In this document: positions 1,272 through 43,606 of the stretch, piece by piece
Layout: each line of letters starts with the position of its first letter
Position numbering within the stretch: position 1 is the stretch's first letter
Assembly: GCA_043802315.1 (NCBI GenBank)
Contig: JAZDLE010000036.1
Location: 1-44,285 of the forward strand
Source: Nitrospirota bacterium
GTDB taxonomy: Bacteria; Nitrospirota; Thermodesulfovibrionia; Thermodesulfovibrionales; SM23-35
DNA length: 44,285 nucleotides
Reading direction: 5' to 3'
The notes under the pieces: model-generated
What the model was told of the DNA's origin: nothing
Seen by the model: only the letters and a program-made list of their open reading frames with translations
Databases searched by the model: none
Program-made: the position numbers and the translations under genes

Positions 1272-3376
1272 TAATACGTTCCTGGTTTTTCTTCTCTCAT
1301 GCCCTTAAAATCATAGCACAGCAAGAGAGAATAATCTCTGATTTTCTCATTGTTAATGTAAACCGTAAAGAGCCTTTTCTCGATCTTTTCAAAAGCACTG
1401 GCTACCGGTTCGGGTACCTTGGTATCCCCTATTCTAACAAGGATTGCATTATGATGGAGGAGTTCATGAAATCCAGGCCAGAGGTCGTACTGGTTCATCC
1501 TGCGGTCAAGGTTAATGCAATAAGTGATAGGATGTCCTTTTACATAAAAGGCGAGTTCACTTGAAACCTGGTACCTATCAGAAAATATAAATATGGCCCT
1601 CCCTTCATACATCTCTTCGTATATCTTCGTCACCTCTGACCCAAGTTCTTTCCAACCTCTTAGCCTGCTGGTAGGGTCTTTTTTGGCAGGAAGGTTAAGG
1701 ATTGAAGGATAATGCGCCAAGGCCGTAACGACCACAGATAGGAGAACTGCTGTTGCAATGAAAATCATTTTGCCTTTTCTTTCAGGAAAAACCTTTTTGG
1801 AGAATGCAGAAAAAGAAAGAATGCCTGTTATATAACCTGGTAGTGCCCAGTTTGCCTGCACCTTACCCTGAAGACTTTTTAAAAGGAAAAAGGCAATGAT
1901 AGGAATAGAAAACCAGAAAAGAAGATCACCCCCTTTCTGTTTCCGTTGGTTCCAGAGAGAGAAGGTCATGAGTATAAAGAGAAGAGGGGTAATTACTCCA
2001 AACTGTGAGCCAACAAATTCAAAGAAACTTCTTAAGGCTATTCTTGCGCCCTCTGCTACATGTGCCTGTCCTGCTGTATGTCTCAGGGTGACCCACTCAT
2101 GGTCTGCATTCCACAGTAATACAGGACTGAAGACCAGAAGGCTTATGATAAAAGCGATATAAGGACCTGTCGTTAGTAAAAGTCTCCTCTCCCTCAAGAA
2201 TAAGAAAAGAAAAGCGCAGAGATAAAAGAGTGCCATGGTGTATTTTGTGAGAAGACCAAAGCCCACTGAAAAGCCAAGGAGGATCCAGTATATGAGTGAT
2301 GTGTGATTAGTTCGTGATGCGTAATCCGTGATGCGTGATGAGTCAAATCCCTCCTTGCCCCCTTTAGAAAAAGGGGGGGTGGGGGGATTACTGGAGTGTA
2401 AGGGATGATATGAGTTTTCTATTGAAAGATAAAACAAAAATAATGACAGTATCCAAAAGAATATAAAGGGTGAATCTATGGTGAATATTATCCCGAATGT
2501 TGAAAAAAGTGGGATAATCTGTATCAATATTGCTGAGAAAAGTCCGACCTGTTTATCATACAGTTTCTTCCCGAGGATATACATGTAGATACTACTGAGA
2601 TAAGAGAAGATGACCGCCATCATTCTGATACCAAAGACATTGTCTCCGAGTATCATAGTGCCAAAATATATGAGATATGCGATCATCGGCCCTTTTGAGT
2701 AATAACTCAAATCAAGCCTCCGCGACCACTCCCAGTAATGAGCTTCGTCAGGACTCAAATCGAGAAATCCCTTCTGGATGTAATATATGCGGAAAAGACT
2801 AAGTGCAAGGAGGAAAACAAAGAGTATAGTAGAGTAAGGTTTTATCTTAAACCTCTCATATGCCATGTTATAGAAACCAATTAAACATAGTGCTAACCCA
2901 ATGCCGACGAGTCCGCCCACAAGAGAATCTGAAGGATAATGTACACCAACGTAGATCCTTGAAAAACTCACAAGAAAGGCAATGATTAAAAAGGCATATC
3001 GCAACCTGTTTTTAAAGAGGATAAGAAATGGTACTGCAAAAGCAAAACTGTTCGCAGCATGGCTTGAAGGCATCGAGTAAGAACTGCTACAACCAACAAG
3101 GAGGTGGACACCTTCGAGTTCGTTGCAGGGCCGCGGCCTTTCAAAAATATGTTTAAGGATATATAAACCCCAATCGGATAAAGCTAAGGAGGCAAAACCG
3201 AGCACTAAGACAAGGCATGCCTTTTTCCAGTCCTTGTAAAAGAACCATCCTACGAAAGGGAATATCAGGAGATATGCCTTGCTTGTAAAAAAAGGCATGG
3301 CAACATCGAAAAGTCTGTTCTGGAGGTCTCTGTTTATGAAGAAAAAGATGAGGGTATCTACCTCAGGAAGGCTCAT
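1271..3376 (-). CDS. Fusion protein: N-terminal PAP2 (acid phosphatase / undecaprenyl-PP phosphatase-like) domain plus GT39 (ArnT/PMT-like) polyprenyl-phosphate-dependent glycosyltransferase
   Basis: 701-aa ORF. PAP2 motifs: KHIFERPRP, SMPSSH, SRIYVGVHYPSD. These are followed by a polytopic GT39-like region (DEAHYWEWSRRLDLSYYSKGPMIAY..). It contains an in-frame repeat insertion at 2313-2389. Confidence 0.75.
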   Translation of the reverse strand: MSLPEVDTLIFFFINRDLQNRLFDVAMPFFTSKAYLLIFPFVGWFFYKDWKKACLVLVLGFASLALSDWGLYILKHIFERPRPCNELEGVHLLVGCSSSYSMPSSHAANSFAFAVPFLILFKNRLRYAFLIIAFLVSFSRIYVGVHYPSDSLVGGLVGIGLALCLIGFYNMAYERFKIKPYSTILFVFLLALSLFRIYYIQKGFLDLSPDEAHYWEWSRRLDLSYYSKGPMIAYLIYFGTMILGDNVFGIRMMAVIFSYLSSIYMYILGKKLYDKQVGLFSAILIQIIPLFSTFGIIFTIDSPFIFFWILSLFLFYLSIENSYHPLHSSNPPTPPFSKGGKEGFDSSRITDYASRTNHTSLIYWILLGFSVGFGLLTKYTMALFYLCAFLFLFLRERRLLLTTGPYIAFIISLLVFSPVLLWNADHEWVTLRHTAGQAHVAEGARIALRSFFEFVGSQFGVITPLLFILMTFSLWNQRKQKGGDLLFWFSIPIIAFFLLKSLQGKVQANWALPGYITGILSFSAFSKKVFPERKGKMIFIATAVLLSVVVTALAHYPSILNLPAKKDPTSRLRGWKELGSEVTKIYEEMYEGRAIFIFSDRYQVSSELAFYVKGHPITYCINLDRRMNQYDLWPGFHELLHHNAILVRIGDTKVPEPVASAFEKIEKRLFTVYINNEKIRDYSLLLCYDFKGMREEKPGTY
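2313..2389. repeat. Composite repeat inside the GT39 CDS: duplicated decamer CGTGATGCGT (2313-2322, 2327-2336) followed by a G/C-tract nested palindrome (2346-2389)
   Basis: The + strand reads cgtgatgcgtaatccgtgatgcgtgatgagtcaaatccctccttgccccctttagaaaaagggggggtggggggatt. The - strand CDS reads it as ..NPPTPPFSKGGKEGFDSSRITDYASRT.. Confidence 0.85.
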
Positions 3377-3400
3377 CGAAGATATCTCACACCTTCTTCA

Positions 3401-4942
3401 TCAATTCTTCAGCCCTGCCTTATCCGTTACCCATTTAATGATCTCTTCTACCATTGCCTCAATGGTTGCCTCTTTGGGCATAACGTCAACATGAAGCCCG
3501 GCTTTTTCAACAGCCTTAGCTGTTACAGGCCCTATAACAGCAATGGTTACACCCTTGAGGAGCTCATCAGCATCTTCTCCCATTATCTCTCTGAAGTTAT
3601 TAAAAGTTGCTGCGCTTGTGAAGGTGGCTATTGAAATCCTTCCCTCTTTTAAAAATCTTCTCAATCTCTTTCCACGAGATTCTGGCTTTATCGTTCTGTA
3701 TGCAACAGGTATATCTATCTCTCCACCGAGTTCTCTAACTTTTTCTGGAAAAATCTCTCTCGCTACTTCTGCTCTTGGCAGTAAAAATCTTATTCCCTTT
3801 AATCCTTTAGCTTTTGAGCCTTCAAACTCTTGAATCAATTTAATCAGTCCTTCGGCACGAAATTCATCAGGGAGTACATCTGTCTTTATACCGTACTTTT
3901 TTATCTCTTCTGCTGTTTTCGTTCCTATAACGCATATCTTTATCCCCTTTAAATCTCTGATGTCTCTATCTTTGTCAAAAAATCTTTTGAAAAAATATTT
4001 CACCCCGTTTCTGCTTGTGAAAATCAACCAGTCATACGTATCAATGTTATCGATTGACTTATCAAGCTCTTCGTAGTTATCCGGTGGTACAACCTCTATT
4101 GTGGGAAATTCGATAATCTCAGCCCCAAGCTCTTCTAATGGTTCAAACCCTTCCATGTGCTCTCTTGTAACGAGTATTCTATGCCCGAACAGTTGTTTTT
4201 TCTCATACCATTTCGGAGATTCCCTGAGCCTTACAACATCTCCGACAACCATCGTGGCAGGTGGTTTTATATCCTTTTCTTTGATAATCCCACTGATATC
4301 TTTTAATGTTCCGACAACTGTTTTCTGATCAGGCCTTGTACCCCATCTGATAACGGCAACGGGTGTATCAGGGCTCCTACCGTTTTCTATAAGTTTTTGG
4401 ATGACCATGTCTATATTCTTTACAGCCATGAGAAAAACGAGCGTGTCAACACTCGTTGAAAGCTTTGACCAGTCGATGGAGCTCTCTTTTTTTGTTGTAT
4501 CCTCATAACCCGGAATGACAGCAAAGGAAGATGAATATAGCCTATGAGTGAGGGGGATCCCTGCATAGGCAGGGGCTGCAACTGATGAGCTTACACCAGG
4601 GACTACTTCAAACTCGATTTTGTTTTGAGCAAGGGCTTCTGCCTCCTCTCCACCGCGACCAAATATAAAAGGATCTCCGCCCTTGAGCCTGCATATAATC
4701 TTGCCCTCCTTCGCCTTTTGGATAAGGATTTTATTAATCTCTTTCTGTGTCATGGTGTGGTGCCCACTTCGCTTGCCAGCATAAATGAACTCGGCGTCGT
4801 GATTGCTATAATTTAATACCTGGGCATTGAGATGGAAATCATAGATAACGACCTCTGCCTTCTGAAGGCACCTCAAACCCTTTACCGTAAGAAGCCCAAT
4901 ATCACCAGGGCCTGCGCCAACTATATAGACCTTGCCTTTCAT
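3401..4942 (-). CDS. cobA/hemD: Bifunctional uroporphyrinogen-III C-methyltransferase / uroporphyrinogen-III synthase
   Basis: 513 aa. The N-terminal SUMT signature is VYIVGAGPGDIGLLTVKGLRCLQKAEVVIYD..GGDPFIFGRGGEE. The C-terminal ~250 aa has a HemD-like repeat architecture. Confidence 0.88.
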   Translation of the reverse strand: MKGKVYIVGAGPGDIGLLTVKGLRCLQKAEVVIYDFHLNAQVLNYSNHDAEFIYAGKRSGHHTMTQKEINKILIQKAKEGKIICRLKGGDPFIFGRGGEEAEALAQNKIEFEVVPGVSSSVAAPAYAGIPLTHRLYSSSFAVIPGYEDTTKKESSIDWSKLSTSVDTLVFLMAVKNIDMVIQKLIENGRSPDTPVAVIRWGTRPDQKTVVGTLKDISGIIKEKDIKPPATMVVGDVVRLRESPKWYEKKQLFGHRILVTREHMEGFEPLEELGAEIIEFPTIEVVPPDNYEELDKSIDNIDTYDWLIFTSRNGVKYFFKRFFDKDRDIRDLKGIKICVIGTKTAEEIKKYGIKTDVLPDEFRAEGLIKLIQEFEGSKAKGLKGIRFLLPRAEVAREIFPEKVRELGGEIDIPVAYRTIKPESRGKRLRRFLKEGRISIATFTSAATFNNFREIMGEDADELLKGVTIAVIGPVTAKAVEKAGLHVDVMPKEATIEAMVEEIIKWVTDKAGLKN

Positions 4943-5037
4943 ATCTTTACGTTAATCATTTTATCACAATTGAAAGTCATGGACCTGGTTAAAAAATATC
5001 CAGTGGTTTGGAAGGGTAGGATAAAACAGGTTAGAGG

Positions 5038-5319
5038 TTAGGAAGAATTCATGGCCTCTTTGAGTGCCTTCCCTGCTTTGAAGTGCAGCGCTCTCTTTGA
5101 TGGCACGTCGATCCTCACGCCTGTCTTGGGATTTCTTGCCATCCTCGGTCTTCTGCTCTTTAGTCTGAAGTTCCCGAAACCTCTTATTTCTATCTTATCG
5201 CCTTTGATAATGGCCTCTTTCATAGTTTCGAAGATAGTCCCGATAACAATCTCTGTCTGTTTCCTTGTCAGGCTACCGAACTTTTCTGAAACCTTTTCAA
5301 TGAGTACTGATTTAGTCAT
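5038..5319 (-). CDS. ihfB: Integration host factor beta / HU-family DNA-binding protein
   Basis: 93 aa. The motif ..IEIRGFGNFRLKSRRPRMARNPKTGVRIDVPSKRALHFKAGKALK.. is typical of IHF/HU arms. Its position downstream of rpsA matches the rpsA-ihfB arrangement in E. coli. Confidence 0.75.
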   Translation of the reverse strand: MTKSVLIEKVSEKFGSLTRKQTEIVIGTIFETMKEAIIKGDKIEIRGFGNFRLKSRRPRMARNPKTGVRIDVPSKRALHFKAGKALKEAMNSS

Positions 5320-5338
5320 ATGACCTCCTTAAAAAGTC

Positions 5339-5414
5339 AAGGTTTAAGGTTGCATGATTCAAAGGTTAAAAGGTTTTAAAACCATTAAATTGTTTAACCA
5401 TTAAACTGTTAAAC
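5339..5414. repeat. AAGGTT x4 (5339, 5346, 5362, 5370), GGTTTTAAAACC palindrome (5372-5383) and a 16-nt tandem AACCATTAAAYTGTTW x2 (5380-5411), in the sppA-ihfB spacer
   Basis: Read directly from the sequence. The element lies 20-95 nt upstream of the ihfB start codon. Confidence 0.6.
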
Positions 5415-5427
5415 TTTTCCTTTTTAC

Positions 5428-6276
5428 TTATGGTGTAAAGAGATACTTTACTTTTACACTGGGAGAAATGTCTGTCCATTCTTTAGGAATCTCATTTCGA
5501 ATGAGATCGATGAGAGAGAAACGCTCCTTTTTGCTGACTATCACCGGCTCTCCCTTTATTCCTGAAAGCTTTGCAGCAGCCTGAACTGTATCCGCGAGAT
5601 TTCCGAGCTCGTCGATGAGGCCTATCTTGAGGGCCTGTTCACCTGTAAAGACCCTTCCATCGGCAATCTTTTTGACATCTTCAGGGAGCATTTTTCTTCC
5701 CTCTGCAACGGCTTTAATAAATTGCTCGTGTACGTTGTCAAGAACCCCCTGAAGGATCTCTCTCTCCTCTTTCCCAATTCCTCTGAATATTGATGCTATG
5801 TCTTTGTGTCTACCGCTCTTAACCACCTCTGTTTTTATACCAAGTTTGTTCATGAGTCCTTCTATATTGGGGATTTCCATGATTACTCCAATTGAGCCTG
5901 TAAGGGTTCCGGGATTTGCAATAATCCTCGTTGCAGGTGAGGCTATATAGTAACCTCCTGAAGCAGCAACAGAGCCCATGGATACCAGGACTTTCTTCTT
6001 TACAGCTGCTTTTCTGACCTCTTCGTAAATCTCCTGTGCAGGAGCAACAGCACCTCCAGGGCTGTCAATACGCAGTACGATAGCCTTAATTGATGGGTTC
6101 TTCACATATTCTTTGAGCTCTTCCGTTGTCTCTCTTGAATCTGTAATAAGCCCCTCTATATTGATCAGGGCAATTCGATCACCTATGGGCATACTCTTTT
6201 GAAGCAGTACAAGGATAATGCTTGCGATAATGAGGAGCATAAACAGACCGAGAATGATGAAAAAGACCTTTTTCAC
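5428..6276 (-). CDS. sppA: Signal peptide peptidase SppA, 36K type
   Basis: 282 aa. It has an N-terminal TM anchor, IDSPGGAV and the catalytic-Ser region SVAASGGYYIA. The GTG start overlaps the rpsA stop (GTGA). Confidence 0.85.
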   Translation of the reverse strand: MKKVFFIILGLFMLLIIASIILVLLQKSMPIGDRIALINIEGLITDSRETTEELKEYVKNPSIKAIVLRIDSPGGAVAPAQEIYEEVRKAAVKKKVLVSMGSVAASGGYYIASPATRIIANPGTLTGSIGVIMEIPNIEGLMNKLGIKTEVVKSGRHKDIASIFRGIGKEEREILQGVLDNVHEQFIKAVAEGRKMLPEDVKKIADGRVFTGEQALKIGLIDELGNLADTVQAAAKLSGIKGEPVIVSKKERFSLIDLIRNEIPKEWTDISPSVKVKYLFTP

Positions 6277-7859
6277 TCCTCCAACCTCTTAAGGTTTTTC
6301 ATGCTCAGTCCTATCTTCCTTTCGTCGAGGTCTACCTTTATGATCCTGACCCACATATCATCGCGTTCCTTGAGAGAGTTCTCAGTCTTTTCTGCTGTCT
6401 GCTTTGCGATCTCGGAAGAGTATACGAGGCCTTCAACCCCACCCTCAAGTTCCACGAATATGCCGAAATCGGTAATCCTGAGTACCTTTCCTTTTACCTC
6501 AGAGCCAAGCTTGAAGTTCTCTGGGATCTCATTTAACCAAGGATCAGGTTTGAGCTGCTTCAGGCCGAGGGCTATCCTTTCAGTCTCTGGTTCTATGCTC
6601 AAAATGATTGCCTCAATCCTTTGTCCCTTCCTCAACATTTCTGATGGATGTTTTACATGTTTTGTCCATGAAAAGTCAGAAATGTGAATGAGACCATCCA
6701 CTCCTTCGGGAAGACTGACGAAGGCACCGAAATCAGCAATGGTCTTTACCTTGCCAGAAATCTTCTGGCCAACGGTATAGCGTTGAGAAACAAGCTCCCA
6801 TGGGCTTGGTTTGAGCTGCTTTATACTTAAGGAGAGACGTCTTTCTTCTTTATCTACCTTTACGACAAGAGCTTCAACAGTCTCTCCAATGGAGAGGTAC
6901 TTTGACGGATGTTTTGGCCGCGGCAGCCAGTCTATCTCAGATATGTGCACAAGTCCCTCAAGGCCTTCTTCAAGTTCAATAAAGGCACCATAATCAGTGA
7001 CGCTTACAACTTTGCCTTTTACCTTTTTACCAACAGGATATCTTTCATCCACAGTGAACCAGGGGTCTGACTTTTTCTGCTTGTAACCGAGCGTTACCCT
7101 TTCATGCTCTTCGTCATATTTAAGGACAATGACCTCTACTTCATCTCCAAGAACAAAAAATTCAGAAGGATGGTTTATTCTTCCCCAGGAGATATCTGAG
7201 ATATGGAGCAATCCGTCTATTCCGCCGAGGTCAATGAAAACTCCGTAGTCTGTAATGTTTTTGACTATCCCTTTCATAAGGGCGCCTTCTTTAAGCTTTT
7301 CAAGGGTCTCAGCCTTCTTCCTCTGTCTTTCTTCCTCGAGGATTGCCCTTCTCGATACAATGACATTAGAAAGCCTGTTATTAAGTTTCAAAACCTTGAA
7401 AAGCATTTTTTGCCCCATGAGATTGTCAATCTCCTTTGGAGCTTTTATGTCCACCTGGGAGCCTGGAAGAAAGGCATTTATCCCTGATATATTCACAAAA
7501 AGGCCACCTTTTGTTTTCCCGTCAACAATTCCCTCTACAGGAGTCCCATCCTGAAGTGCTTTCTGTAGAAGCTCCCATGTGTTTATCTTTGTTGCCTTTT
7601 CTTTTGAAAGATTTATAATACCCTCAGAATCCACGATCTCCTCAACGTATACCTCTATATAACCTCCAATTTTTATTGAAGCAAGCTCTTCTTCAGAAAA
7701 TTCCCTGATAGGGACAAACCCTTCAGATTTATACCCGATATCAACTATGACCCCGTCCTGTTTCAATGCTAATATCCTTCCTCTTAATATTGTTCCCTCT
7801 ACAATACTATGAAAGGTCTCAGCATAAAGTCTTTCCATTTCATTGTTTTTAAGTTCCAC
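6273..7859 (-). CDS. rpsA: 30S ribosomal protein S1 (six S1 domains)
   Basis: 528 aa with repeated S1 OB-fold units (G.I..V.DYGAFI.L..G..GL.HISE...). Confidence 0.95.
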   Translation of the reverse strand: MELKNNEMERLYAETFHSIVEGTILRGRILALKQDGVIVDIGYKSEGFVPIREFSEEELASIKIGGYIEVYVEEIVDSEGIINLSKEKATKINTWELLQKALQDGTPVEGIVDGKTKGGLFVNISGINAFLPGSQVDIKAPKEIDNLMGQKMLFKVLKLNNRLSNVIVSRRAILEEERQRKKAETLEKLKEGALMKGIVKNITDYGVFIDLGGIDGLLHISDISWGRINHPSEFFVLGDEVEVIVLKYDEEHERVTLGYKQKKSDPWFTVDERYPVGKKVKGKVVSVTDYGAFIELEEGLEGLVHISEIDWLPRPKHPSKYLSIGETVEALVVKVDKEERRLSLSIKQLKPSPWELVSQRYTVGQKISGKVKTIADFGAFVSLPEGVDGLIHISDFSWTKHVKHPSEMLRKGQRIEAIILSIEPETERIALGLKQLKPDPWLNEIPENFKLGSEVKGKVLRITDFGIFVELEGGVEGLVYSSEIAKQTAEKTENSLKERDDMWVRIIKVDLDERKIGLSMKNLKRLEE

Positions 7860-7866
7860 GAAAAGT

Positions 7867-8703
7867 TTATCCTCCTATATTTCTAATTCTCTCTTCCACT
7901 TCTTTTATGATCCAACCAGGAGTTGATGCCCCAGCCGTAATGCCGACTTTCTTTGCCCCCTTGAACCATACATCTTTAATCTCGGAGGGGGTTTCTATAT
8001 GATAGGTAGCTACGGAAAGAGACCGGCAGAGTTTTGCGAGCTGCGTTGTGTTTGCACTGTTTTTACCGCCTACGACAAGCACCACATCAACCTTATGGGC
8101 CATATCTTCTGCCTCCTTTAATCGAAGGGCTGTGGAGCTGCATATTGTATTATATACTTTTATCTCCTTTGCATATTTTATTGCATGAGAGAGGACCCGT
8201 TTCAATGCCTCAAGAGGTTGAGTTGTTTGGACGACGATACCCACCTTGCTCTTGAGTCTTGGGAGAGGTCTATTACCATCAACTACGATGGCATCATCAC
8301 TTGCATAGCTCATAAGCCCCTTTACCTCTGGGTGCTCCCTTTCCCCCAGGATAACTACCTGATAACCTTCTTCCCTAAGGAGTTTAGCATAATACTGGGC
8401 CTTTTTTACAAATGGACAGGTTGCATCTATTATCTCACACCCCATGCAAGATATCTCTTCTGAGAGGTTACGGGGTATGCCATGGGTTCTAATTATCAGG
8501 GCCTTTATATCCTTTTTCCCTTTTATTTCCTTTATGGGAATGATCCCCTTCTCCTTGAGCTTTTCTACTACCTGGGGATTGTGGATTATCGGTCCAAGGG
8601 TGTATACCCCCTTGTGCTTTTTCCTGGATACGCGGAAGGCTATGTCTACAGCCCTCTTAACGCCAAAGCAGAACCCAGCCGTCTTAGCCACAAGTATTTT
8701 CAT
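7867..8703 (-). CDS. ispH: 4-hydroxy-3-methylbut-2-enyl diphosphate reductase
   Basis: MKILVAKTAGFCFGVKRAV.. is the conserved IspH N-terminus, so ATG 8703 is preferred. The tracked ORF start at 8742 is a GTG that adds MLYALCSMLYASS, which is encoded by a duplicated 11-mer. Confidence 0.9.
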   Translation of the reverse strand: MKILVAKTAGFCFGVKRAVDIAFRVSRKKHKGVYTLGPIIHNPQVVEKLKEKGIIPIKEIKGKKDIKALIIRTHGIPRNLSEEISCMGCEIIDATCPFVKKAQYYAKLLREEGYQVVILGEREHPEVKGLMSYASDDAIVVDGNRPLPRLKSKVGIVVQTTQPLEALKRVLSHAIKYAKEIKVYNTICSSTALRLKEAEDMAHKVDVVLVVGGKNSANTTQLAKLCRSLSVATYHIETPSEIKDVWFKGAKKVGITAGASTPGWIIKEVEERIRNIGG

Positions 8704-8716
8704 TGAACTAGCGTAA

Positions 8717-8741
8717 AGCATAGAGCAAAGAGCATAGAGCA
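8717..8741. repeat. Duplicated 11-mer AGCATAGAGCA (8717-8727, 8731-8741) in the plsC-ispH spacer
   Basis: Read directly from the sequence. The motif is related to the GCTCTTAGCTCT arms of the inverted repeat at 37043-37089. Confidence 0.6.
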
Positions 8742-8749
8742 CAAAGTTT

Positions 8750-9369
8750 TTAGCCCTTTGCCTTTAGCTCTTTACCTTTAAGATTTCTTATCCTCTCCAT
8801 TATCTCCCTGGTTATCCTCTCCTGGAAGTGTTTGTCTGTCTCCTTTTTTTCGATCTTTAAGGGCGTGCCAAATACCACTCTTATCTTAGCAGGTCTTATA
8901 AACTTGGCACCTACAGGGAGAGCCTTGTCTGTTCCTTCAATAAGTGTTGGAACAACAGGAGTGGCACTCATGGCTGCAATCATGCCCACTCCTCTTTTGG
9001 CATCAAGCAAGCTACCATCAGCACTCCGACCCCCTTCTGGGAAAAGAACGAGAACCCCTCCTTGTTTAAGCCGGGAAACAGCCTCCTTTATTGTGGAGGG
9101 CTGCGGCCTATCACGGCTCACAGGGAAACAGAAGACTTTAATTGCCCTACCGATTAAGGGGATCCTAAAAAGTCCTTCCTTTGCAATGTATGCAGCCCGC
9201 CTTTTTAAAGCCACTCCGATAACAGGGGGGTCTAGATAACTGACATGGTTCGCTGCTACGATAACCCCACCTTTATCCGGGATATTCTCAGAGCCAATCA
9301 CCTCGAGTCTGTTAATAACTTTGAAAAAAAAATAAAAGATTGTCCTTAGGAGTTGGTAAAAAAGATAAC

Positions 9370-9373
<4 letters not shown>
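8750..9373 (-). CDS. plsC: 1-acyl-sn-glycerol-3-phosphate acyltransferase
   Basis: 207 aa with the HX4D motif AANHVSYLDPPV and the FPEGGRS motif. Confidence 0.85.
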
Positions 9374-10053
<680 letters not shown>

Positions 10054-10072
10054 TTATTACTTCTTTTTAATA

Positions 10073-10094
10073 CCCCACAGTCTCTGCTGTGGGG
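10073..10094. repeat. Hairpin repeat copy 1: CCCCACAG-TCTCTG-CTGTGGGG
   Basis: 8-bp G/C-clamped stem with a 6-nt loop, preceded by ATA. It has the same flank and loop as the copy at 10167-10188. Confidence 0.8.
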
Positions 10095-10097
10095 TTT

Positions 10098-10138
10098 CCT
10101 CCTACCCCCACTTTGGCAAAGGGGGGCGAGGGGGGATT
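10098..10138. repeat. G/C-tract nested palindrome, 5'-degenerate copy
   Basis: cctcctacccccactttggcaaaggggggcgaggggggatt. The inner arms CCCCCACTTT/AAAGGGGGG and the right outer arm GGGGGGATT are intact. Confidence 0.75.
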
Positions 10139-10166
10139 TTAAATTAATAAAATTTACCTAAAGATA

Positions 10167-10188
10167 CCCCGCCGTCTCTGCGGCGGGG
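10167..10188. repeat. Hairpin repeat copy 2: CCCCGCCG-TCTCTG-CGGCGGGG
   Basis: The architecture matches 10073-10094. The two stem differences are compensated on the opposite arm. Confidence 0.8.
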
Positions 10189-10228
10189 AGGTTCATTAAC
10201 CTCATTTGCGAAGTTTTTGCTGCTTCAA

Positions 10229-10263
10229 CTCCCCCTTTTCTAAAGGGGGAGTAAGGGGGATTA
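10229..10263. repeat. G/C-tract nested palindrome, copy lacking the left outer arm
   Basis: ctcccccttttctaaagggggagtaagggggatta. Confidence 0.7.
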
Positions 10264-10307
10264 CTAATCATAACCCTTCATGCCTTTTAGACATTAATGC
10301 TTTATTC

Positions 10308-11645
10308 TTATGTTGTTAACCTTTTCAAAATATCAAAGAATCCAGGGAATGATATGCTGACAGATGAGACATCATTGATTGTTGTTGTCCCATCAGCAAT
10401 GATGGCTGCAATTGCCATCGCCATTGCAATCCTGTGGTCCTTGTGACTTTCTATAACTGCACCTTTTAATCCCCTCCCACCTGTGATATTCAGGCCATCT
10501 TCGAACTCCTCGATTTCTGCTCCCATCTTTCTGAGTTCCGTTGATATCGTTTTTATCCTGTCAGACTCCTTTACTCGAAGCTCCTCTGCCCCCCTGATAG
10601 TTGTGATTCCCGTACCCTGAGTTGCTACCACGCAAAAAATAGGAAATTCATCAATCAGAGAAGGGATTCTTTCTTTTGTTATGTGAATGCTCTTCAATTC
10701 CCTATCACCTTTACAATATATGTCAGCAATAGGTTCACCTGATACTTCCTTGATATTGGAGATTCTGATATCCGCCCCCATCTCTTGAAGTACACTGAGA
10801 AGGCCAGTCCTTGTAGGATTAATGCCTACTCCCTTGATCAGAATCTCAGAATCTCTGATTAGCAATGTCCCGGCGATAAAGAATGCAGCAGATGAGAAAT
10901 CCCCTGGCACATACATCTCTAAACCTATCAGTTCTGTTCCACCTTGTATCTTTATATGAAAGTCTTCAATTTTTATTTCTGCACCAAAGGCAGGCAGCAT
11001 CCGTTCTGTGTGGTCCCTTGACTTAAGAGGTTCTATAACTTCTGTCTCTCCTTCTGCATAAAGGCCTGCGAGGAGAATAGCTGACTTAACCTGAGCGCTC
11101 GCTACAGGCATGGTATATTGAATTGCCCTCAGTCTTTTGCCCCGAATAGCAATGGGTGGATATCTATCGTCACACCTTGCTATTATCTCCGCACCCATCT
11201 GTCTTAAGGGGATGATGACCCTCGACATTGGCCTTTGCCTTAAGGATTCATCTCCTGTCAGGACAGAAAAGAAAGGATTTCCTGAAAGCACTCCTGAGAG
11301 GAGCCTCATTGTCGTGCCTGAGTTTCCGCAATCAATAGTATCAATTGTCTCTTTAAGCCCGTATAACCCCTTACCATGGATTATGAGTTCACCTGAAAAT
11401 CCCCCCTCGCCCCCCTTTACTAAAGGGGGGATGGGGGGGATTACATTTTCTTCTATTTCAATGCCAAGCATCCTCATGGCATTTACAGTGCTTATTGTAT
11501 CTTCAGCCCTGAGGAAGTTTTTTATTATGCTTTTTCCTTTTGAGAGGGAAGAGAATATTACAGCCCTGTGGGATATGGACTTATCAGGGGGAGGAGAAAA
11601 ATCACCTTTAAAACTTTTTGCCTTGCTGAGCTCAATTCTGTCCAA
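10308..11645 (-). CDS. aroA: 3-phosphoshikimate 1-carboxyvinyltransferase (EPSP synthase) carrying a 15-codon palindromic-element insertion
   Basis: 445 aa with ..PPDKSISHRAVIFSSL.., ..GNSGTTMRLL.. and ..KESDRI.. motifs. Only a TTG start (11645) is available upstream of the conserved N-terminus. Confidence 0.9.
   Translation of the reverse strand: MDRIELSKAKSFKGDFSPPPDKSISHRAVIFSSLSKGKSIIKNFLRAEDTISTVNAMRMLGIEIEENVIPPIPPLVKGGEGGFSGELIIHGKGLYGLKETIDTIDCGNSGTTMRLLSGVLSGNPFFSVLTGDESLRQRPMSRVIIPLRQMGAEIIARCDDRYPPIAIRGKRLRAIQYTMPVASAQVKSAILLAGLYAEGETEVIEPLKSRDHTERMLPAFGAEIKIEDFHIKIQGGTELIGLEMYVPGDFSSAAFFIAGTLLIRDSEILIKGVGINPTRTGLLSVLQEMGADIRISNIKEVSGEPIADIYCKGDRELKSIHITKERIPSLIDEFPIFCVVATQGTGITTIRGAEELRVKESDRIKTISTELRKMGAEIEEFEDGLNITGGRGLKGAVIESHKDHRIAMAMAIAAIIADGTTTINDVSSVSISFPGFFDILKRLTT
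11408..11452. repeat. G/C-tract nested palindrome (intact copy) inside aroA
   Basis: aatcccccctcgcccccctttactaaaggggggatgggggggatt, 45 nt. aroA on the - strand reads it as IPPIPPLVKGGEGGF. The + strand shadow ORF reads the same DNA as PPSPPFTKGGMGG. Confidence 0.9.
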
Positions 11646-12507
11646 TACCTTCCCTCAGTGTCCGGGCCCTTTCGAATTCCCTTTCGAGGGATTCGAAATC
11701 AGAAGCCCTGAGATACTGGCTTAACCGTTCGAGATTGTTTTTGAAGATCTCGATAGATTTGAGGAGATTATCCTTATTCAGGATACAGATATCACGCCAG
11801 AGTTCTGGAGAACTCGATGCAATCCTTGTGGTACCCATAAAGCCCGGACCTGCAAATTTCAGGTATGCACCATCTATATCTGCTACAGCATTTACTATAG
11901 CATATGCGATGAGATGAGGCAGGTGGCTTACCATTGCATAAATCCTGTCATGTTCGTCGGGATTGATCAGTTCTACGATGCAGCCAAGGGTTTTCCATAT
12001 GTGGATAAGCTTCTCGAGAGCATCACCATGGGTTTTTTCCGTAGGCGTGAGAATACATTTCGCACCCCTGAAGATATCAGCTGTTGCTGTATCAATCCCT
12101 GAACGGCTGCTTCCTGCTATAGGGTGACCACCGATAAAGTAGGTACCTTCAGGCATGAGTGTCTCCATGTCGCAGACAAGCCCGCCTTTTACACTCCCAA
12201 CATCAGTAACTAAGGATCCTTTTTTCAAAGCAGGACGGATTTTTTTTGCAATTTCAATAAAGTTTCCGACAGGAGTTGCAAGTAAGACAAGATCAGAGTC
12301 ATCACATGCCCTTACAGGATCAAGTTCAAAGGAATCGATGATTCCCATCTCTTTTGCTCTCTGAAGGTTTTCGAGCCTCCTACCGTGTCCAGTGAGATGG
12401 TTGCAGAGGTTATACTTCTTCATTGCAAGGGCAAAAGAAGCACCGATTAATCCAACGCCGAGTATTGTTACCCTATTAAAAAAAGGATGAACCGGAGAGT
12501 CGGTCAT
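11632..12507 (-). CDS. tyrA: Prephenate (or arogenate) dehydrogenase
   Basis: 291 aa with the Rossmann N-terminus [19 protein letters not shown] and a GGHPIAGS motif. It lies in the aromatic amino-acid operon. Confidence 0.85.
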
Positions 12508-13529
12508 ATTTCCCTTCCAACAGCAGCGGCTATTGGTTTTAATTCCTCCATCAGTTTCTTAAATGCTGAAGGCTTTATGGACTGCTCTCCATCCGAAAGC
12601 GCCTCCTCAGGATTTATATGCACCTCAATGATAAGTCCATCTGCTCCTGCTGCTATAGCAGCCTTTGACATGGGCGCAACAAGGTCCCACTTGCCTACAC
12701 CATGGCTAGGATCAACAAAAACGGGAAGATGGGTAAGTTGCTTTAGAACCGGTACTGCGCTGATGTCAAGAGTATTCCTGGTTGCAGTCTCGAAGGTCCT
12801 CACGCCCCGTTCGCAGAGGATTACATTCTGGTTACCCCTTGACATTATATACTCGGCAGCCATGAGCCATTCTTTTATTGTTGCCGATAAACCCCTTTTA
12901 AGCAGAACTGGTTTGTCGCATGTGCCAACATCGAGGAGGAGTCTGAAGTTCTGCATGTTCCTTGCTCCAATCTGCATTATATCAGCGTACCTTACAATGA
13001 CCTCGATATCCCTGGGATCCATCAGCTCTGTTACAATGGGGAGCCCTGTTTTTTCTCTTGCCGCTGAGAGATATTTCAATCCCTCTTCCCCGAGTCCCTG
13101 GAATGAGTAAGGAGAAGTTCGAGGTTTAAATGCACCTCCCCTGAGAAAGGAAGCGCCAGCATCCTTGACCTTCTCTGCTATACTTATTATCATGGTCATG
13201 CTTTCTACAGCGCATGGACCTGCTATCACTTGTATCTTTTTACCTCCAATAACATTTCCTCTAACATCAATAGAGGTATCTTTTGCCTTGAAATCTCTGC
13301 TTGCAAGCTTATAGGGTTTGAGTATCCGCATGACATCTTCGACACCAGGCATCACCCTTATAGCATCCTCTTCCTCTTCTGCTATCTTAGAGGTGTCTCC
13401 GATAACCCCGATTACAGTCCTCTCAGTACCCTTTGAGATGTTTGCCTTGAGACCGCGGCTTTCGAGTTTCTTCACAATTCGCCTTAAATCATCTTCGGTT
13501 ACATTTGGTTTTAAAACAATGATGTCCAT
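12504..13529 (-). CDS. aroF: 3-deoxy-7-phosphoheptulonate (DAHP) synthase, type I-beta, with an N-terminal ferredoxin-like regulatory domain
   Basis: 341 aa. The core is ..[40 protein letters not shown].., preceded by a ~70-aa extra domain as in the Thermotoga-type enzyme. A GGAGG sequence lies upstream of the ATG. Confidence 0.85.
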
Positions 13530-13556
13530 TTATTCCTCCAATTGCCTTCGCACTTC

Positions 13557-14654
13557 TTATTTCTCACTTCTTTTTTTCTTTAGGGCTGCAATAAATCTCT
13601 CATTCTCCTCGGGCAGGCCTATGGTAACCCTTATCTCTTGAGGTCCTACAGGCCTGACAATCACACCGTGCCTGAGCATTTCATTGTACAATACATGTGA
13701 ATCCTGACTCAAAAGTATATATATGAAGTTTGCCTCGGTAGAAACATATTTCACATTGAGGGAGCCGAGTTCCCTGTAAAGGTATTTTTTCCCTTCTTCA
13801 TTTATTTCCCGAGAATACCTGACATGAGACTCATCTTGAAGGGCATATATGGCTGCATTTTGTGCTAGAGAGTTTGTGTTAAAGGGTGGCCTGAGTTTAT
13901 TTATCTCAAGGATAATATCATTTCTTGCAATCCCATAACCAATCCTGAGACCTGCGAGACCATAGATTTTAGAAAAGGTCCTTAGTATCAGTATATCTCT
14001 TCCGCCCCTAAAATGCTTCATGCTATTAGCATAATCAGGATCTTCCACATATTCATAGTATGCCTCATCAACCACGATGAGTATTCCATCAGGAACCCGA
14101 CATAGCAGGCGATCAAACTCATCTCTTTTATTTATCGTGCCAGTAGGGTTATTCGGATTTGCTATAAATATCATCTTTGTTTTCTGGGTAACGGCATCTG
14201 CCATTGCTTCAAGGTCATGCGTGTAGTCCTTCAGGGGTATATGCACTGGTCTTCCACCTATTGCCTGAACAGCCATGGGATAGACAATAAAGGAAGGGTG
14301 CGCCATAACAGCTTCATCACCAGGTTGCAGAAAGGTTCTCACGGCAATATCGATCAGCTCATTAGAGCCATTTCCGAGAATCAACTCATCTTCCCTGACA
14401 GAAAGCCTTCCTGATAAAGCTTTTTTCAGATGGTATCCGCCTCCATCGGGATATCTATTAATGCTATTTGAAGGATTTGAATCCCCTAAGCTATCTAAGA
14501 TGGCTTTTAGTGCTTTTGGTGAGGGGCCAACAGGATTCTCATTGGATGCAAGTTTTATAGAGTCTCTGATACCGATTTCCCTTTCGAGCTCCTCAATCGG
14601 TTTTCCAGGTATGTAAGGCGTAAGGGTTGAGATGTAATGTGGGGGTTTAATCAT
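13557..14654 (-). CDS. hisC: Histidinol-phosphate / aromatic aminotransferase (class II PLP)
   Basis: It has ..LASNENPVGPSP.. and ..RTFSKIYGLAGLRIGY.. motifs. ATG 14654 (MIKPPHY..) is preferred because it overlaps the pheA stop (TGATG). The tracked start at 14702 would overlap pheA by 49 nt. Confidence 0.85.
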   Translation of the reverse strand: MIKPPHYISTLTPYIPGKPIEELEREIGIRDSIKLASNENPVGPSPKALKAILDSLGDSNPSNSINRYPDGGGYHLKKALSGRLSVREDELILGNGSNELIDIAVRTFLQPGDEAVMAHPSFIVYPMAVQAIGGRPVHIPLKDYTHDLEAMADAVTQKTKMIFIANPNNPTGTINKRDEFDRLLCRVPDGILIVVDEAYYEYVEDPDYANSMKHFRGGRDILILRTFSKIYGLAGLRIGYGIARNDIILEINKLRPPFNTNSLAQNAAIYALQDESHVRYSREINEEGKKYLYRELGSLNVKYVSTEANFIYILLSQDSHVLYNEMLRHGVIVRPVGPQEIRVTIGLPEENERFIAALKKKRSEK

Positions 14655-37164: not shown

Positions 37165-37208
37165 AATCCCCCCCGCCCCCCCTTGAGAACAGGGGGGGCG
37201 GGGGGGAT
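37165..37208. repeat. G/C-tract nested palindrome (intact, intergenic copy)
   Basis: aatcccccccgcccccccttgagaacagggggggcggggggatt. Confidence 0.85.
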
Positions 37209-37319
37209 TTGAATGATTATTTTTGGAGAAAAATATAAAACACTCTTGAACAAGGTCTAAATTTCAGCTCAAGAATAAAGGGGAATGATGAGAGGGTGGA
37301 GCTATCGAGAGAGCGGAAT

Positions 37320-37751
37320 TCATTTCCTCGTCTTCCTGCATTTACTACAGTATCCCTTTATCTCGAGAGTATGGGTTACGCCTTCGAACCCTTTCTTTTT
37401 GCATATCTTATTCTGAAGACCTTCTAACGCCTCAGAATAAAACTCTATGACACTGCCGCATGAAATACAGAGCATATGATCATGATGGTTTCTGCCGAAA
37501 GTCTGTTCATAGTGGGCATGTTTTTCAGTTCTTTCCACCTGCTCAATGAGACCGCTTTCAAGAAGGAGAGGAAGAGTTCTGTAAATGGATGCCTTTGAAA
37601 CTTTTAGTCCTTTTTTCTTCATTCCGATATAAAGTTCCTCAGGGTCAAAATGGCCGTATCGAGAAGAAATATCCTTGAGTATCAACTCTCTCTCTCTTGT
37701 AAATTTAAGACCTTTACTCTTAAGATGTTCTCTGAATACCCTTTCTCGCAT
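37320..37751 (-). CDS. fur: Fur-family metalloregulator
   Basis: 143 aa with ..LK.T..R..IL......GHF..EELY......G..VS.ASIYRTL..L...GLI.., HHDH..C..CG..IEF and a C-terminal CxxC. Confidence 0.85.
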   Translation of the reverse strand: MRERVFREHLKSKGLKFTRERELILKDISSRYGHFDPEELYIGMKKKGLKVSKASIYRTLPLLLESGLIEQVERTEKHAHYEQTFGRNHHDHMLCISCGSVIEFYSEALEGLQNKICKKKGFEGVTHTLEIKGYCSKCRKTRK

Positions 37752-40547: not shown

Positions 40548-40564
40548 ACCATTTCTACCGCTTT

Positions 40565-41646: not shown

Positions 41647-41738
41647 TGATAACCATACCTCTTATGTCATTCTGAGGCGAAGCCGAAGAATCTCTAAGCC
41701 ATTCCATTGATAAATCTTTCTAATTAGGGTTTTTGCTT

Positions 41739-42422
41739 TCAATATAGATAAAGAACAGAGAACTTAGCCCTTTCAGATGGATTCGCTGCATTTTCTGCAT
41801 CTACTTCTATCGTATAAAGATACGGATAACTCATTACCCGTATTTCACCAGAATTAGAATCCACCACTCGATTGTTTATCAGACCTTCGTCTCCTGCGCT
41901 ATTACCCTCAACTGTGTCCACTATTTTTGAATATACATTATATGTAGGAACTGTCCCGAGAGTAAAGACCATGTCATAGGAAGTACCTGTATTAGGGTTG
42001 ATGACCATGGTGTTATCACAACCAGCCCAAGAAGTAGTTGGTGTATTAAGTTTTGCTGCTAATCCTGTAAAAGATGTTCCAGATAGATTTGTACCGGTAC
42101 AAGTAGCGGGTGTTGTAATAGCAGGAGCAAGAGCCGATAAATCACTTAAAAAAGAGGCAGTTCTTGATGTATCTCCTCTAAGCCCAGCAAGCTGATAGGT
42201 GATGTCAGTGCCGCCCATAGCAGCCTCAGATGCGGTTTTGTATCTTTTTTGCATACCTGAAATCTGGGTTCCCGTTGTTATCATATAGATCAATCCTGCC
42301 ATGATGACGAGCGTAATAGCCGAGAGCAAGAGAACCATTACAAGGGCAATGCCTTTTTCGTTCATGAGTTGAGAACTCGACTGCTGACTTTTGACCTCTG
42401 GCTGCTGACTTCTCATGATCAC
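41739..42422 (-). CDS. PilX-like minor pilin / pseudopilin
   Basis: ..EKGIALVMVLLLSAITLVIMAGLIYM.. followed by ..YKTASEAAMGG.. has a PilX_N-like layout. ATG 42422 overlaps the upstream stop (ATGA). An alternative start, ATG 42365 (MNEKG..), would skip the SQQPEVKSQQS segment encoded by a duplicated decamer. Confidence 0.55.
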   Translation of the reverse strand: MIMRSQQPEVKSQQSSSQLMNEKGIALVMVLLLSAITLVIMAGLIYMITTGTQISGMQKRYKTASEAAMGGTDITYQLAGLRGDTSRTASFLSDLSALAPAITTPATCTGTNLSGTSFTGLAAKLNTPTTSWAGCDNTMVINPNTGTSYDMVFTLGTVPTYNVYSKIVDTVEGNSAGDEGLINNRVVDSNSGEIRVMSYPYLYTIEVDAENAANPSERAKFSVLYLY

Positions 42423-43606
42423 CTCAGATTATTCGGTCTTACAACCAATGTGTATAATTTCCACCGATAATTTACGTTTGCCCCAATATCAAAATTACGT
42501 CCTCCTCCGATGGCAGGGTCGCCGACATATATTGTCGTAGGCGTATGAGTGTAATTTACATCTCTTTGTCCCTCGTGGGCTAAAACATATACTCTTACCT
42601 CTTTTACCTGATCTCTTATCTGTTGGGCTGTAAGTGCGGATATGTCATCAGTAGTGTTATCAATAGTCCCATCACCGTCAGTATCCCGGCGATAGACTAC
42701 CTGCATATCAGCAGCACAGTCAAGAAGTGGGAGGAAGTTATAGTTTCCACCAGCATCATGGTTCATTGTAGCTTTGAAAAGGATGCCTGTATTTGGAGCA
42801 CACCTCTGGGGCGTATTAGTAGCTGGTCTTTGGATAAAATAATCTGACCTGTTGAACGGTCTTACAGGAAAGCTTGCGCTGCTATCGTTAACGCCGTATA
42901 TAATATGAGTGTCCGTTGAAACCGTTGGTGCAAAGCCAGCGGTAATACTGAATGTTGTAGTAAATGCTCCACCACTCACAATCAGTGACCTGCTGTTTAA
43001 ATCAGTGCTTCCCGGAAAAACAACGATTACCCTGTCTGTTCCGTTGAGGTCTTCGCTTGCAATGCCCCATGTCCTTTTGGTATCGCCTGAGGTTTGCGTA
43101 GTCCATTTTTGGCATGCATCATTCCTGGCGACATTTACAGCTTTTATCACCAAATAATCTGAACCATCAAAGATGTCATTTGGACTGCTGAAAGTTGCAT
43201 TATTTGCGCTAACAAGAGCCTTAGGTGCATCATTTGGTGCATCATTGAGATTGAACGGATTTGTTCCTCCTTCACTATAACCGGGTAGATGTTCCCAGAA
43301 ATTTCCATCACCATCAGTATCAGCAATTCCTGTTACATTCCATGGCAATCCGTACCCTGCATGCCCTATATCCTGCTTTAAGATCTCGAGACCTACAATT
43401 CCCTCTATATTGGTCTCAGCTATCTTGCTTTGTTGCTTGAATTGGGTTAATAGTCCCGTAAATATCTGGGAACCTGCCGCCATAACAAGCACAAAGACAA
43501 CCATTGTTATCAACAACTCTATTAAAGTAAACCCTGCTTTAGAGTTAATCCCCCCTTGCCCCCCTTTAGTAAAGGGGGGATGGGGGGATTTTTTGCGCTT
43601 AATCAT
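42419..43606 (-). CDS. PilW-like minor pilin with a prepilin N-terminal cleavage/methylation motif; the leader peptide is expanded by a palindromic element
   Basis: 395 aa. MIKRKKSPHPPFTKGGQGGINSKAG/FTLIELLITMVVFVLVMAAG.. is the class III signal. The ATG overlaps the upstream stop (ATGA). Confidence 0.7.
   Translation of the reverse strand: MIKRKKSPHPPFTKGGQGGINSKAGFTLIELLITMVVFVLVMAAGSQIFTGLLTQFKQQSKIAETNIEGIVGLEILKQDIGHAGYGLPWNVTGIADTDGDGNFWEHLPGYSEGGTNPFNLNDAPNDAPKALVSANNATFSSPNDIFDGSDYLVIKAVNVARNDACQKWTTQTSGDTKRTWGIASEDLNGTDRVIVVFPGSTDLNSRSLIVSGGAFTTTFSITAGFAPTVSTDTHIIYGVNDSSASFPVRPFNRSDYFIQRPATNTPQRCAPNTGILFKATMNHDAGGNYNFLPLLDCAADMQVVYRRDTDGDGTIDNTTDDISALTAQQIRDQVKEVRVYVLAHEGQRDVNYTHTPTTIYVGDPAIGGGRNFDIGANVNYRWKLYTLVVRPNNLR
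43547..43590. repeat. G/C-tract nested palindrome (intact copy) inside the prepilin leader-coding region
   Basis: aatccccccttgcccccctttagtaaaggggggatggggggatt. The - strand CDS reads it as SPHPPFTKGGQGGIN. Confidence 0.9.

Follow-up and report, generated by a model that had tools for sequence, protein, structure and literature searches.

We analyzed a 44,285-nt contig from a bacterium of the Nitrospirota, lineage Thermodesulfovibrionia (JAZDLE010000036.1, positions 1 to 44,285; this whole stretch is called the window), which carries a dispersed family of G/C-rich nested palindromes, some of them in frame within conserved genes. The reading that we favor, at somewhat better than even confidence, is that these nested palindromes are gene-less derivatives of a widespread, hairpin-ended selfish element built around a DUF559 gene.

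The window contains four nested palindromes of 44 to 45 nt. Their outer arms are terminal inverted repeats, AATCCCCCC and GGGGGGATT. The spans below were measured from AAT to ATT, and no strand is assigned.

2346 to 2389: nested palindrome copy 1, left outer arm degenerate (AATCCCTCC), in the PAP2/GT39 open reading frame (ORF)
11398 to 11442: nested palindrome copy 2, inside the AroA ORF
37165 to 37209: nested palindrome copy 3, intergenic
43547 to 43590: nested palindrome copy 4, in the leader of a PilW-like prepilin

An earlier, sequence-only reading of this DNA had recognized all four copies, but it placed the second at 11408 to 11452, a shift of 10 nt to the right. A permissive search pattern (C5-N4-C5-N10-G5-N4-G5, with at most 3 mismatches) matched the four copies and 10098 to 10135 in the window. 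It had 0 matches in 100 dinucleotide-preserving shuffles, a chance expectation of 0. Folded as single-stranded DNA, all four copies form the hairpins of about 20 bp with a small internal loop that the sequence-only reading had described. Their free energies lie between -16 and -27 kcal/mol, and their z-scores lie between -4.1 and -7.0. The G+C content of the window is 40 to 45%. The nested palindromes are therefore G/C islands, in agreement with their earlier description as such in AT-leaning DNA. An Rfam scan of the window gave no credible match at E ≤ 1.

The basic unit of the family is asymmetric. It consists of a Y/R-tract hairpin, CCCCCTTT-n3-AAAGGGGG, followed by a short spacer of 1 to 3 nt and then by a purine tag, GGGGGATT. 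A nested palindrome is one such hairpin with a tag on each side. The window also holds units that are not nested.

10098 to 10138, + strand: asymmetric unit, with bulged hairpin CCCCCACTTTGGCAAAGGGGGG, spacer CGA, and tag GGGGGGATT; intergenic, 3' of aroA
10229 to 10262, + strand: asymmetric unit, with hairpin CTCCCCCTTT-tct-AAAGGGGGAG, spacer t, and tag AAGGGGGATT; intergenic
20285 to 20319, + strand: variant unit with interrupted tracts, with hairpin TCCCCTC-loop-GAGGGGA, spacer c, and tag AAAGGGGAGGG
20340 to 20372, - strand: variant unit with interrupted tracts, with hairpin CTCCCCC-ttgat-GGGGGAG, spacer cgt, and tag AAGGGAGGGGG

The first two had been taken for 5'-degenerate copies (at 10098 to 10138 and 10229 to 10263), but they are asymmetric hairpin-plus-tag units and not decayed nested palindromes. 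The last two had been called divergent relatives. The relationship is real, and its form is that of variant units with interrupted tracts.

We scanned a species-dereplicated collection (one genome per species) for the unit, using CCCCCTTTNNNAAAGGGGG-N2-8-GGGGGATT, and for the nested form. At least 120 loci matched the unit and at least 118 matched the nested form, so the wider pattern search that had been suggested did find further copies beyond the window. Among the matches listed, the unit occurs in more than 15 phyla. The groups that bear it include Thermodesulfobacteriota, Nitrospirota, Nitrospinota, Ignavibacteriota, Omnitrophota, Patescibacteria, Chloroflexota, Myxococcota, Methylomirabilota, Acidobacteriota, and Melainabacteria, as well as Beta- and Gammaproteobacteria, the latter two with the isolates Chromatium okenii, Iodobacter arcticus, Pseudoxanthomonas, and Thiorhodococcus. 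The nested form is richest, among the matches listed, in Nitrospirota, Nitrospinota, Scalindua, and Syntrophales. At least 120 IMG/VR viral contigs carry the unit as well. When the listed matches were aligned in register, most were asymmetric, with a hairpin, a 1- to 5-nt spacer, and the tag GGGGGATT(T). Full nested palindromes account for about one-fifth of the unit-scan matches listed, and inverted tail-to-tail dimers (for example, L035, L063, and L065) and tandem hairpins are common.

The breadth of this distribution bears on whether the G/C tracts could be artefacts of assembly or polishing. Errors are frequent in homopolymer tracts, and metagenome-assembled genomes (MAGs) are numerous among the carriers. 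However, the same elements recur in hundreds of independent assemblies, including closed chromosomes and isolates (Acinetobacter and Pseudomonas in addition to the four named above), and they keep frames open in conserved genes. We give an artefactual origin next to no weight.

The repeat unit brackets a gene. We clustered 2,506 ORFs near 120 listed repeat loci, all against all, and found no recurrent transposase. The sole specific family was a small cluster of proteins of about 120 aa, and in 5 of the 120 repeat-selected loci it sits directly between two inverted units. By Pfam, this flanked family is DUF559 (PF04480; E values of 1e-31 to 1e-35), with no Y1_Tnp match. For a linkage test, we selected 80 loci by DUF559 protein similarity alone. 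With a strict detector, a unit lay within 130 nt upstream in 45 of 77 loci, an inverted unit lay within 130 nt downstream in 60 of 77, and both were present in 36. The background in the same loci was 0.006 per strand-specific 130-nt window, and the enrichment is about 100-fold. A relaxed detector found upstream units in 53 of the 80 loci, downstream units in 54, and both in 38.

The geometry of the bracketing follows a common plan. The upstream tag mostly ends 2 to 35 nt before the DUF559 ATG, and often 6 to 12 nt before it, which is a Shine-Dalgarno distance. The downstream tag starts between -45 and +35 relative to the DUF559 stop, and several loci use the TAG of the hairpin loop as their stop codon. 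The module ends are half units with their tags towards the gene, and full nested palindromes are rare there. The whole module is about 430 to 450 bp long, with a unit and its inverted copy as ends and a 115-aa DUF559 gene within.

A closed Nitrospirales chromosome (L096) carries both the module and reduced forms of it. An intact flanked DUF559 gene lies at 2382 to 2759 of this locus, and a tandem array of 275-nt repeats lies at 5100 to 6300. Each repeat holds two hairpin units and a 46-aa DUF559 fragment; the repeats are therefore internal-deletion derivatives. Across phyla, the unit variants that flank DUF559 genes are co-inherited with the encoded proteins. Where an unusual type of downstream arm is shared, the proteins have 61% identity, versus 56% for the others (3 of 500 permutations), and they come from different host phyla. 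On the Picosynechococcus PCC 7002 plasmid pAQ6 (L511, 20670 to 21796), an annotated DUF559 gene has variant unit flanks without the TTT/AAA part (upstream, CCCCGATTCGGGGG-cta-GGGGGCAAT; downstream, GCCCC-taaat-CCCCGTTCCGGGG). Judging from this variant, the bracketing architecture may extend to repeat types of different sequence. The DUF559 genes of Neisseria gonorrhoeae and Escherichia coli have more degenerate flanks. In 20 DUF559 loci scanned against Rfam, nothing reached the gathering score. An identical DUF559 protein on 12 contigs represents the same locus in one population and thus says nothing on mobility.

[quoted passage not shown] The small DUF559 ORF might be a tolerated landing site, or the hairpins might serve as a terminator and ribosome-binding-site cassette. 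Two loci speak for this. In L253 (2870 to 3400) and L255 (2880 to 3430), the DUF559 module lies within a larger element that has 27-bp terminal inverted repeats (TIRs), GGGTCTTCGTGGAAGAGTGTGGGTCAA, and an 8-bp duplication, TATCTTTT; the L253 copy splits an N6-adenine methyltransferase/type IIG-like gene. The ends of this larger element recall what we take to be ISL3-type inverted repeats. DUF559 modules can thus be carried also by other elements. A 115-aa nuclease would also be small for a transposase, and the window has the repeats with no DUF559 gene. However, no transposase family recurs near the 120 listed loci, and the outer TIRs occur in L253 and L255 only, among the 80 DUF559 loci. The arrangement, with its tag at a Shine-Dalgarno distance, its stop at the inverted tag, and its roughly 100-fold enrichment, is also fixed in many phyla. 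We consider this explanation unlikely, though it keeps some weight.

If the palindromes instead derive from a DUF559 element, the DUF559 protein would be a nuclease that nicks or cuts at the units and thereby drives their copying, in a homing-like or REP/RAYT-like manner. The family matches PDB entry 3hrl (N. gonorrhoeae NGO0050) with an E value of 2e-26. Its NCBIfam name is only "DUF559 domain-containing protein," PADLOC gives weak nuclease-domain matches, and many members carry the JGI label "very-short-patch-repair endonuclease" (3,827 clusters at E ≤ 1e-10). Homologues occur in E. coli (YcjD), Neisseria, and cyanobacteria. We used an AlphaFold model made from database homologues of DUF559 (pLDDT, 85.8) for a Foldseek search. 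The first match was 3hrl, and the next was the catalytic domain of the homing endonuclease I-Bth0305I (3r3p), with a probability of 1.0 and a TM score of 0.65 to 0.67. Weaker matches were Vsr (1cw0), AbaSI/PvuRts1I, and TnsA. From this model, DUF559 is predicted to have a Vsr-like PD-(D/E)XK fold. According to a published classification, a single PD-(D/E)XK group unites Vsr, DUF559, and that homing endonuclease. Several mitoribosomal proteins of Toxoplasma and Tetrahymena also match the fold, with a TM score of about 0.6; these are presumably the eukaryotic RAP-type PD-(D/E)XK domain, which is unrelated to the repeats.

Units with interrupted tracts show how the tag is related to the hairpin. 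In these units, the tag reads as the 3' stem arm reversed, and it is neither the complement nor a direct copy of that arm. Examples are AAAGAGGGG-tt-AGGGGAGATT, AAAGGGAGG-tta-GGAGGGATT, and AAAGGGAGAG-tt-AGAGAGGGATT. A full unit with the first of these mirror pairs can be written 5'-CCCCTCTTT-GGA-AAAGAGGGG-TT-AGGGGAGATT, whereas a direct-repeat tag would read GAGGGGATT. Among 204 unique informative units, the mirror was the better fit in 155 and the direct repeat in 6, with a tie in 34. Among 62 distinct interrupted arm/tag pairs, 22 were mirror-identical over 5 nt and 4 were direct-identical. In 2,000 shuffles, mirror-identical pairs averaged 6.3 and never exceeded 14, against the 22 observed. 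Both variant units in the window (20285 to 20319 and 20340 to 20372) obey the mirror rule. In L239, the two ends have different arms, and each has its own mirrored tag.

The stem arm and the tag together form a homopurine-homopyrimidine mirror repeat, and the interruptions co-vary. In antiparallel purine-motif triplexes, pairing follows the rules G.G-C, A.A-T, and T.A-T. Because the tag mirrors the 3' arm, an intramolecular triplex is possible in principle. The tag could lie on the purine arm of the hairpin by G.G-C, A.A-T, and T.A-T, with ATT over AAA, and the complementary strand has the pyrimidine-motif equivalent. We suggest that the mirror tag may act via such a non-B structure, either a triplex or a cruciform. 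The covariation of arm and mirror tag gives a clue, of a kind seldom seen at the level of sequence, that selection acts on a triplex-capable DNA structure at repeat ends.

Three of the window's nested copies lie in the following genes.

1271 to 3376, - strand: host gene of copy 1, a membrane protein with Pfam PAP2 and PMT_2 (GT39-like) domains
10308 to 11645, - strand: host gene of copy 2, Pfam EPSP synthase (AroA)
42419 to 43606, - strand: host gene of copy 4, a PilW-like minor prepilin with Pfam N_methyl and PilW domains

All three copies are read in frame on the - strand. Copy 1 encodes NPPTPPFSKGGKEGF in a loop of the PAP2/GT39 protein, and copy 2 encodes (V)IPPIPPLVKGGEGGF inside AroA. 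Copy 4 encodes SPHPPFTKGGQGGI in the arrangement MIKRKK-insert-NSKAG/FTLIELL, that is, within the leader that is cleaved off, upstream of the G/FTLIELL site. ORFs, Pfam matches, and translations agree with the sequence-only reading on these three in-frame copies. It had also pointed out that no coding copy uses the stop-containing frame. That statement holds but tells us nothing, since any copy in that frame would fail to count as lying within an ORF.

The same kind of occupancy is found across phyla. Among the matches listed, 55 of 117 nested copies (47%) lie in long ORFs, compared with 67% of random 45-nt windows from the same loci; the criterion (a stretch free of stops, with 40 or more codons to either side of the copy and a total of 150 or more) may over-call in high-G+C genomes. 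Typical in-ORF peptides are NPPxPPFxKGGxGG[FIL] and xIPPxPPLxKGGxG[GD][FL]. Where the hairpin loop has no stop, the third reading frame is in use as well (PLFQRG).

Presence/absence polymorphism at orthologous sites had been proposed as a check, and we find it for AroA, the GT39 loop, and the PilW leader. Against solved structures, the whole AroA protein aligns except for a gap of 15 to 16 residues exactly at IPPIPPLVKGGEGGF. We gathered 26 Thermodesulfovibrionia orthologues by protein similarity; the closest relatives are Nitrospirota/Thermodesulfovibrionia MAGs. Ten of the 26 have no insert at all at the copy 2 site, and L121/L524 is among those without copy 2. Five further orthologues (L123, L125, L126, L131, and L145) have the insert at the same junction, L124 and L127 have variants of it, and L130 and L135 have decayed remnants. 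In L128, L129, L138, and L140, the same loop holds a different, C/T-tract nested palindrome, CCCCCTCCCACCCCTCCCCCTCGAGGGGGGAGGGCAAGGGAGGGGG, together with GAACTCC heptamers. Several repeat families thus use the same AroA loop; therefore, particular protein loops are hot spots. A second aroA site has a NSELRTQNSELF-type insert in L124, L125, L130, and L133.

In the GT39 protein, two conserved membrane segments enclose a hypervariable loop. This loop contains NPPxPPLEKGGKGGF in many homologues and nothing in the shortest ones (664 to 671 aa). An exact look-up returned no identical record for the GT39 protein of the window. A heptamer tandem repeat (CGTGATG, four times, at 2313 to 2340) adjoins copy 1 in the GT39 ORF and encodes ..SRITDYASRTNH..; its region differs from that of L524 by 18 nt. 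Heptamer-derived peptides (SELRTQNS and SSLITHHSS) occupy the same GT39 loop in homologues. The majority of PilW homologues start with MIRRETG/FTLIELL, which has a 6-residue leader, and a subset has one or two element peptides between MIKR.. and ..G/FTL. A HisC-like aminotransferase gene (13557 to 14702) is empty in the window and has the element in L123, L124, and L127. In the HisC-like gene of L125 (7724 to 7790), one nested palindrome is inserted in the loop region of another, and the ORF is still open, in a different frame (PLFQRG). The empty HisC-like site already has AAT..ATT.

A close relative shows the polymorphism at the nucleotide level. L524, from the same organism as L121, is syntenic with positions 1 to 13600 of the window at 90% nucleotide identity. 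Four small palindromic blocks are present in the window only: the aroA element, the unit at 10230 to 10259, and two blocks with a second hairpin family. Nothing in L524 aligns to 10026 to 10116, a block that takes in the 5' part of the unit at 10098 to 10138; the rest of that unit, up to 10138, falls where the intergenic DNA aligns poorly. In L524 only, the same GT39 copy contains an additional partial unit of 27 nt. Therefore, the repeats turn over between closely related genomes.

The second hairpin family, CCCCnnnGTCTCTGnnnGGGG, lies at 10073 to 10093 and 10167 to 10187 and adjoins both asymmetric units 3' of aroA. It has 2 matches in the window, with 0.08 expected, and one copy is terminator-like. 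Both copies fall in blocks that L524 does not have. A 67-nt block at a two-gene junction of L524 (4577 to 4643, near window position 8749) is missing in the window. A cyanobacterial origin of the window is rejected, since HIP1 occurs once in it and the AroA relatives belong to Thermodesulfovibrionia.

This turnover also bears on the possibility that the repeats serve the host as cis-acting signals (terminators, sites for nucleoid proteins, or stabilizers of mRNA, for example) and that the coding copies are accidental. Copy 3 has a terminator-like score on the - strand, downstream of the ORF at 37320 to 37751 (- strand), and hairpin stability is high. Intergenic copies may indeed act incidentally as terminators. 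However, nearly half of the nested copies lie within ORFs, no Rfam family matches the window or the 20 DUF559 loci scanned, and copies are polymorphic between genomes that are 90% identical. A host signal would also not have one sequence across phyla, nor would it bracket a nuclease gene. We regard this possibility as very improbable.

The comparison with L524 also locates a tract around the aroA copy.

11314 to 11510, no strand assigned: recombination (conversion-like) tract around copy 2, marked by an identity dip against L524

Measured per 50 nt, the identity between the window and L524 is 88 to 100% across aroA and 67 to 72% in 11314 to 11510. This tract of about 200 nt reaches 70 to 85 nt to either side of copy 2. 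The upstream aroA tract of the window is 85 to 92% identical to the filled alleles of L123, L131, L124, and L127, and the rest of aroA is only 66 to 80% identical to these lineages. The identity dip and the match to filled, diverged alleles therefore point to short-patch homologous recombination and not to clean insertion or excision. The presence/absence difference at aroA thus arose by short-patch recombination with a diverged allele, with transfer in either direction. The pattern resembles homing co-conversion, at one site and for a copy without a nuclease gene.

Such a tract might suggest that the repeats do not transpose at all. In this scenario, copies seldom arise, and existing G/C-tract sites pass them on, between and within genomes, by homologous recombination or gene conversion alone, while permissive loops act as mutation hot spots. 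The AroA and GT39 loops each host several unrelated repeat types, and the AAT..ATT at the empty HisC-like site would also fit. However, the entire 45-nt unit is found in four genes and several intergenic regions that are unrelated to one another, and in L125 one element is inserted within another. The intergenic copies that only the window has lie in non-homologous flanks, and the same sequence is shared by over 15 phyla and by viral contigs. Spread by recombination alone is in our judgment distinctly unlikely.

We therefore return to derivation from a DUF559 element as the best explanation. The autonomous or cognate form would be the hairpin-ended DUF559 module of about 430 to 450 bp. Gene-less forms (solo units, dimers, and nested palindromes) would multiply and then be filtered by selection, and in Thermodesulfovibrionia the commonest of them is the 45-nt nested palindrome. 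The nested structure is exactly what joined ends or a tandem module junction would give. Copies are gained and lost between close relatives, and at orthologous sites they would be spread or removed by short-patch recombination, with about 70 to 85 nt of flank on each side. Copies in genes would persist only in frame, in permissive loops or cleaved leaders, where they encode a Pro/Gly-rich peptide, N-P-P-x-P-P-[FL]-x-K-G-G-x-G-G.

Several points weigh against this explanation. The tags of the half units that flank DUF559 face the gene, whereas the tags of the in-gene copies face outward. The 44-kb window itself has no DUF559 gene. DUF559 could be carried as a passenger, or the repeat could simply be drawn to it as a host factor. 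The modules of L253 and L255 lie inside a TIR element, and therefore something else moved them there. The counts for the mirror rule are not phylogenetically independent. The recombination tract is documented at the aroA site only, and no target-site duplication or precise junction could be defined from the filled and empty sites of AroA and the HisC-like gene or from the L524 alignment. We know of no nuclease activity for small DUF559 proteins, and the structure 3hrl has no assigned function.

A broader proposal is more tentative, and we put it forward with some doubt. The units with hairpin and mirror tag, together with the 115-aa DUF559 gene, may be a new class of minimal selfish element (about 430 to 450 bp), with a nuclease that recognizes a non-B end and with thousands of gene-less copies seeded across most bacterial phyla. 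If this is true, many gene-less copies have been fixed as Pro/Gly-rich inserts in essential proteins. The new element would be smaller than IS200, which is about 0.7 kb, and DUF559, a large family, would gain a role. Neither Rfam nor a literature search (sequence strings and DUF559 full text, with incomplete coverage) yielded a description of the repeat or of its association with DUF559.

The findings matter beyond the window. In-frame palindromic repeats have so far been treated as a peculiarity of Rickettsia, and they are now found in free-living Nitrospirota and many other phyla. In-frame copies in genes as central as aroA offer a broad natural data set on loops that tolerate a fixed 15-residue insert. 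The DUF559 link offers a testable function for a very abundant family with a solved structure (3hrl). The repeats also break assemblies, and in annotated proteins they give rise to false N-terminal extensions and to differences in length.

The repeats work like Rickettsia palindromic elements (RPEs) and resemble REP/RAYT systems, IS200-type elements, and homing systems in various ways, but they differ from each of these in at least one defining feature. The sequence-only reading had drawn a parallel with RPEs. This parallel holds functionally, because our repeats are likewise in frame and polymorphic and 47% of the nested copies occupy long ORFs, but it does not extend to family membership, because size, sequence, and hosts all differ. 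According to PMC10969869 and PMC3733652, RPEs are about 100 to 150 bp long (about 150 bp as first reported), form ten families, and are confined to Rickettsia. They are hairpin-forming palindromes that lie in frame in intact genes, are polymorphic among orthologues, and encode a conserved peptide (Ogata et al. 2000, via PMC10969869 and PMC3733652). The repeats described here share these traits. They are, however, 45 nt long and consist of G/C tracts in an AT-leaning genome, their range spans over 15 phyla, and a nuclease gene is bracketed by their unit. Size and hosts set them apart from RPE-1 to RPE-10.

REPs and their dimers (REPINs), with the associated RAYT gene, are similar in other respects. 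As described in PMC3116915 and PMC3733652, they are short palindromes with a tag at one end and with inverted dimers, and a small single gene between two inverted repeats is thought to disseminate them. The tag here is a purine mirror tag, GGGGGATT or a mirror variant, that ends in ATT, whereas REPs have GTAG/CGTC. The flanked gene encodes a PD-(D/E)XK DUF559 protein here, in contrast to the Y1 HUH protein of RAYT. Most REPs are described as lying in intergenic space, whereas 47% of the nested copies here lie in long ORFs, a far higher occupancy than is described for REPs. In common with MITEs, the repeats have terminal inverted repeats (AATCCCCCC and GGGGGGATT). However, among the listed loci the sole gene that shares these ends is DUF559, and no parent insertion sequence that encodes a transposase has them.

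The I-Bth0305I family of Vsr-like homing endonucleases (PDB 3r3p) is linked to the repeats by the match of the DUF559 model to its catalytic domain and by the co-conversion-like replacement of flanks at the aroA copy, a single site. However, DUF559 has no extra DNA-binding domains, and neither an intron nor an intein context was seen. A nuclease gene is absent from most of the dispersed copies, and cleavage is only predicted here. IS200/IS605 elements offer a likeness in scale: a tiny module with a gene for an enzyme of about 115 to 150 aa, two non-identical hairpin ends, and gene-less derivatives. They differ in that DUF559 has no Y1_Tnp domain, and no conserved 4- to 5-nt target was found next to the left end of our modules. 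The parallel for the ends themselves lies outside the mobile elements, since we know of no mobile-element end described as having an H-DNA-type mirror motif. Like the homopurine mirror repeats of H-DNA, the stem arm and tag form a mirror repeat, a likeness drawn from their sequence.

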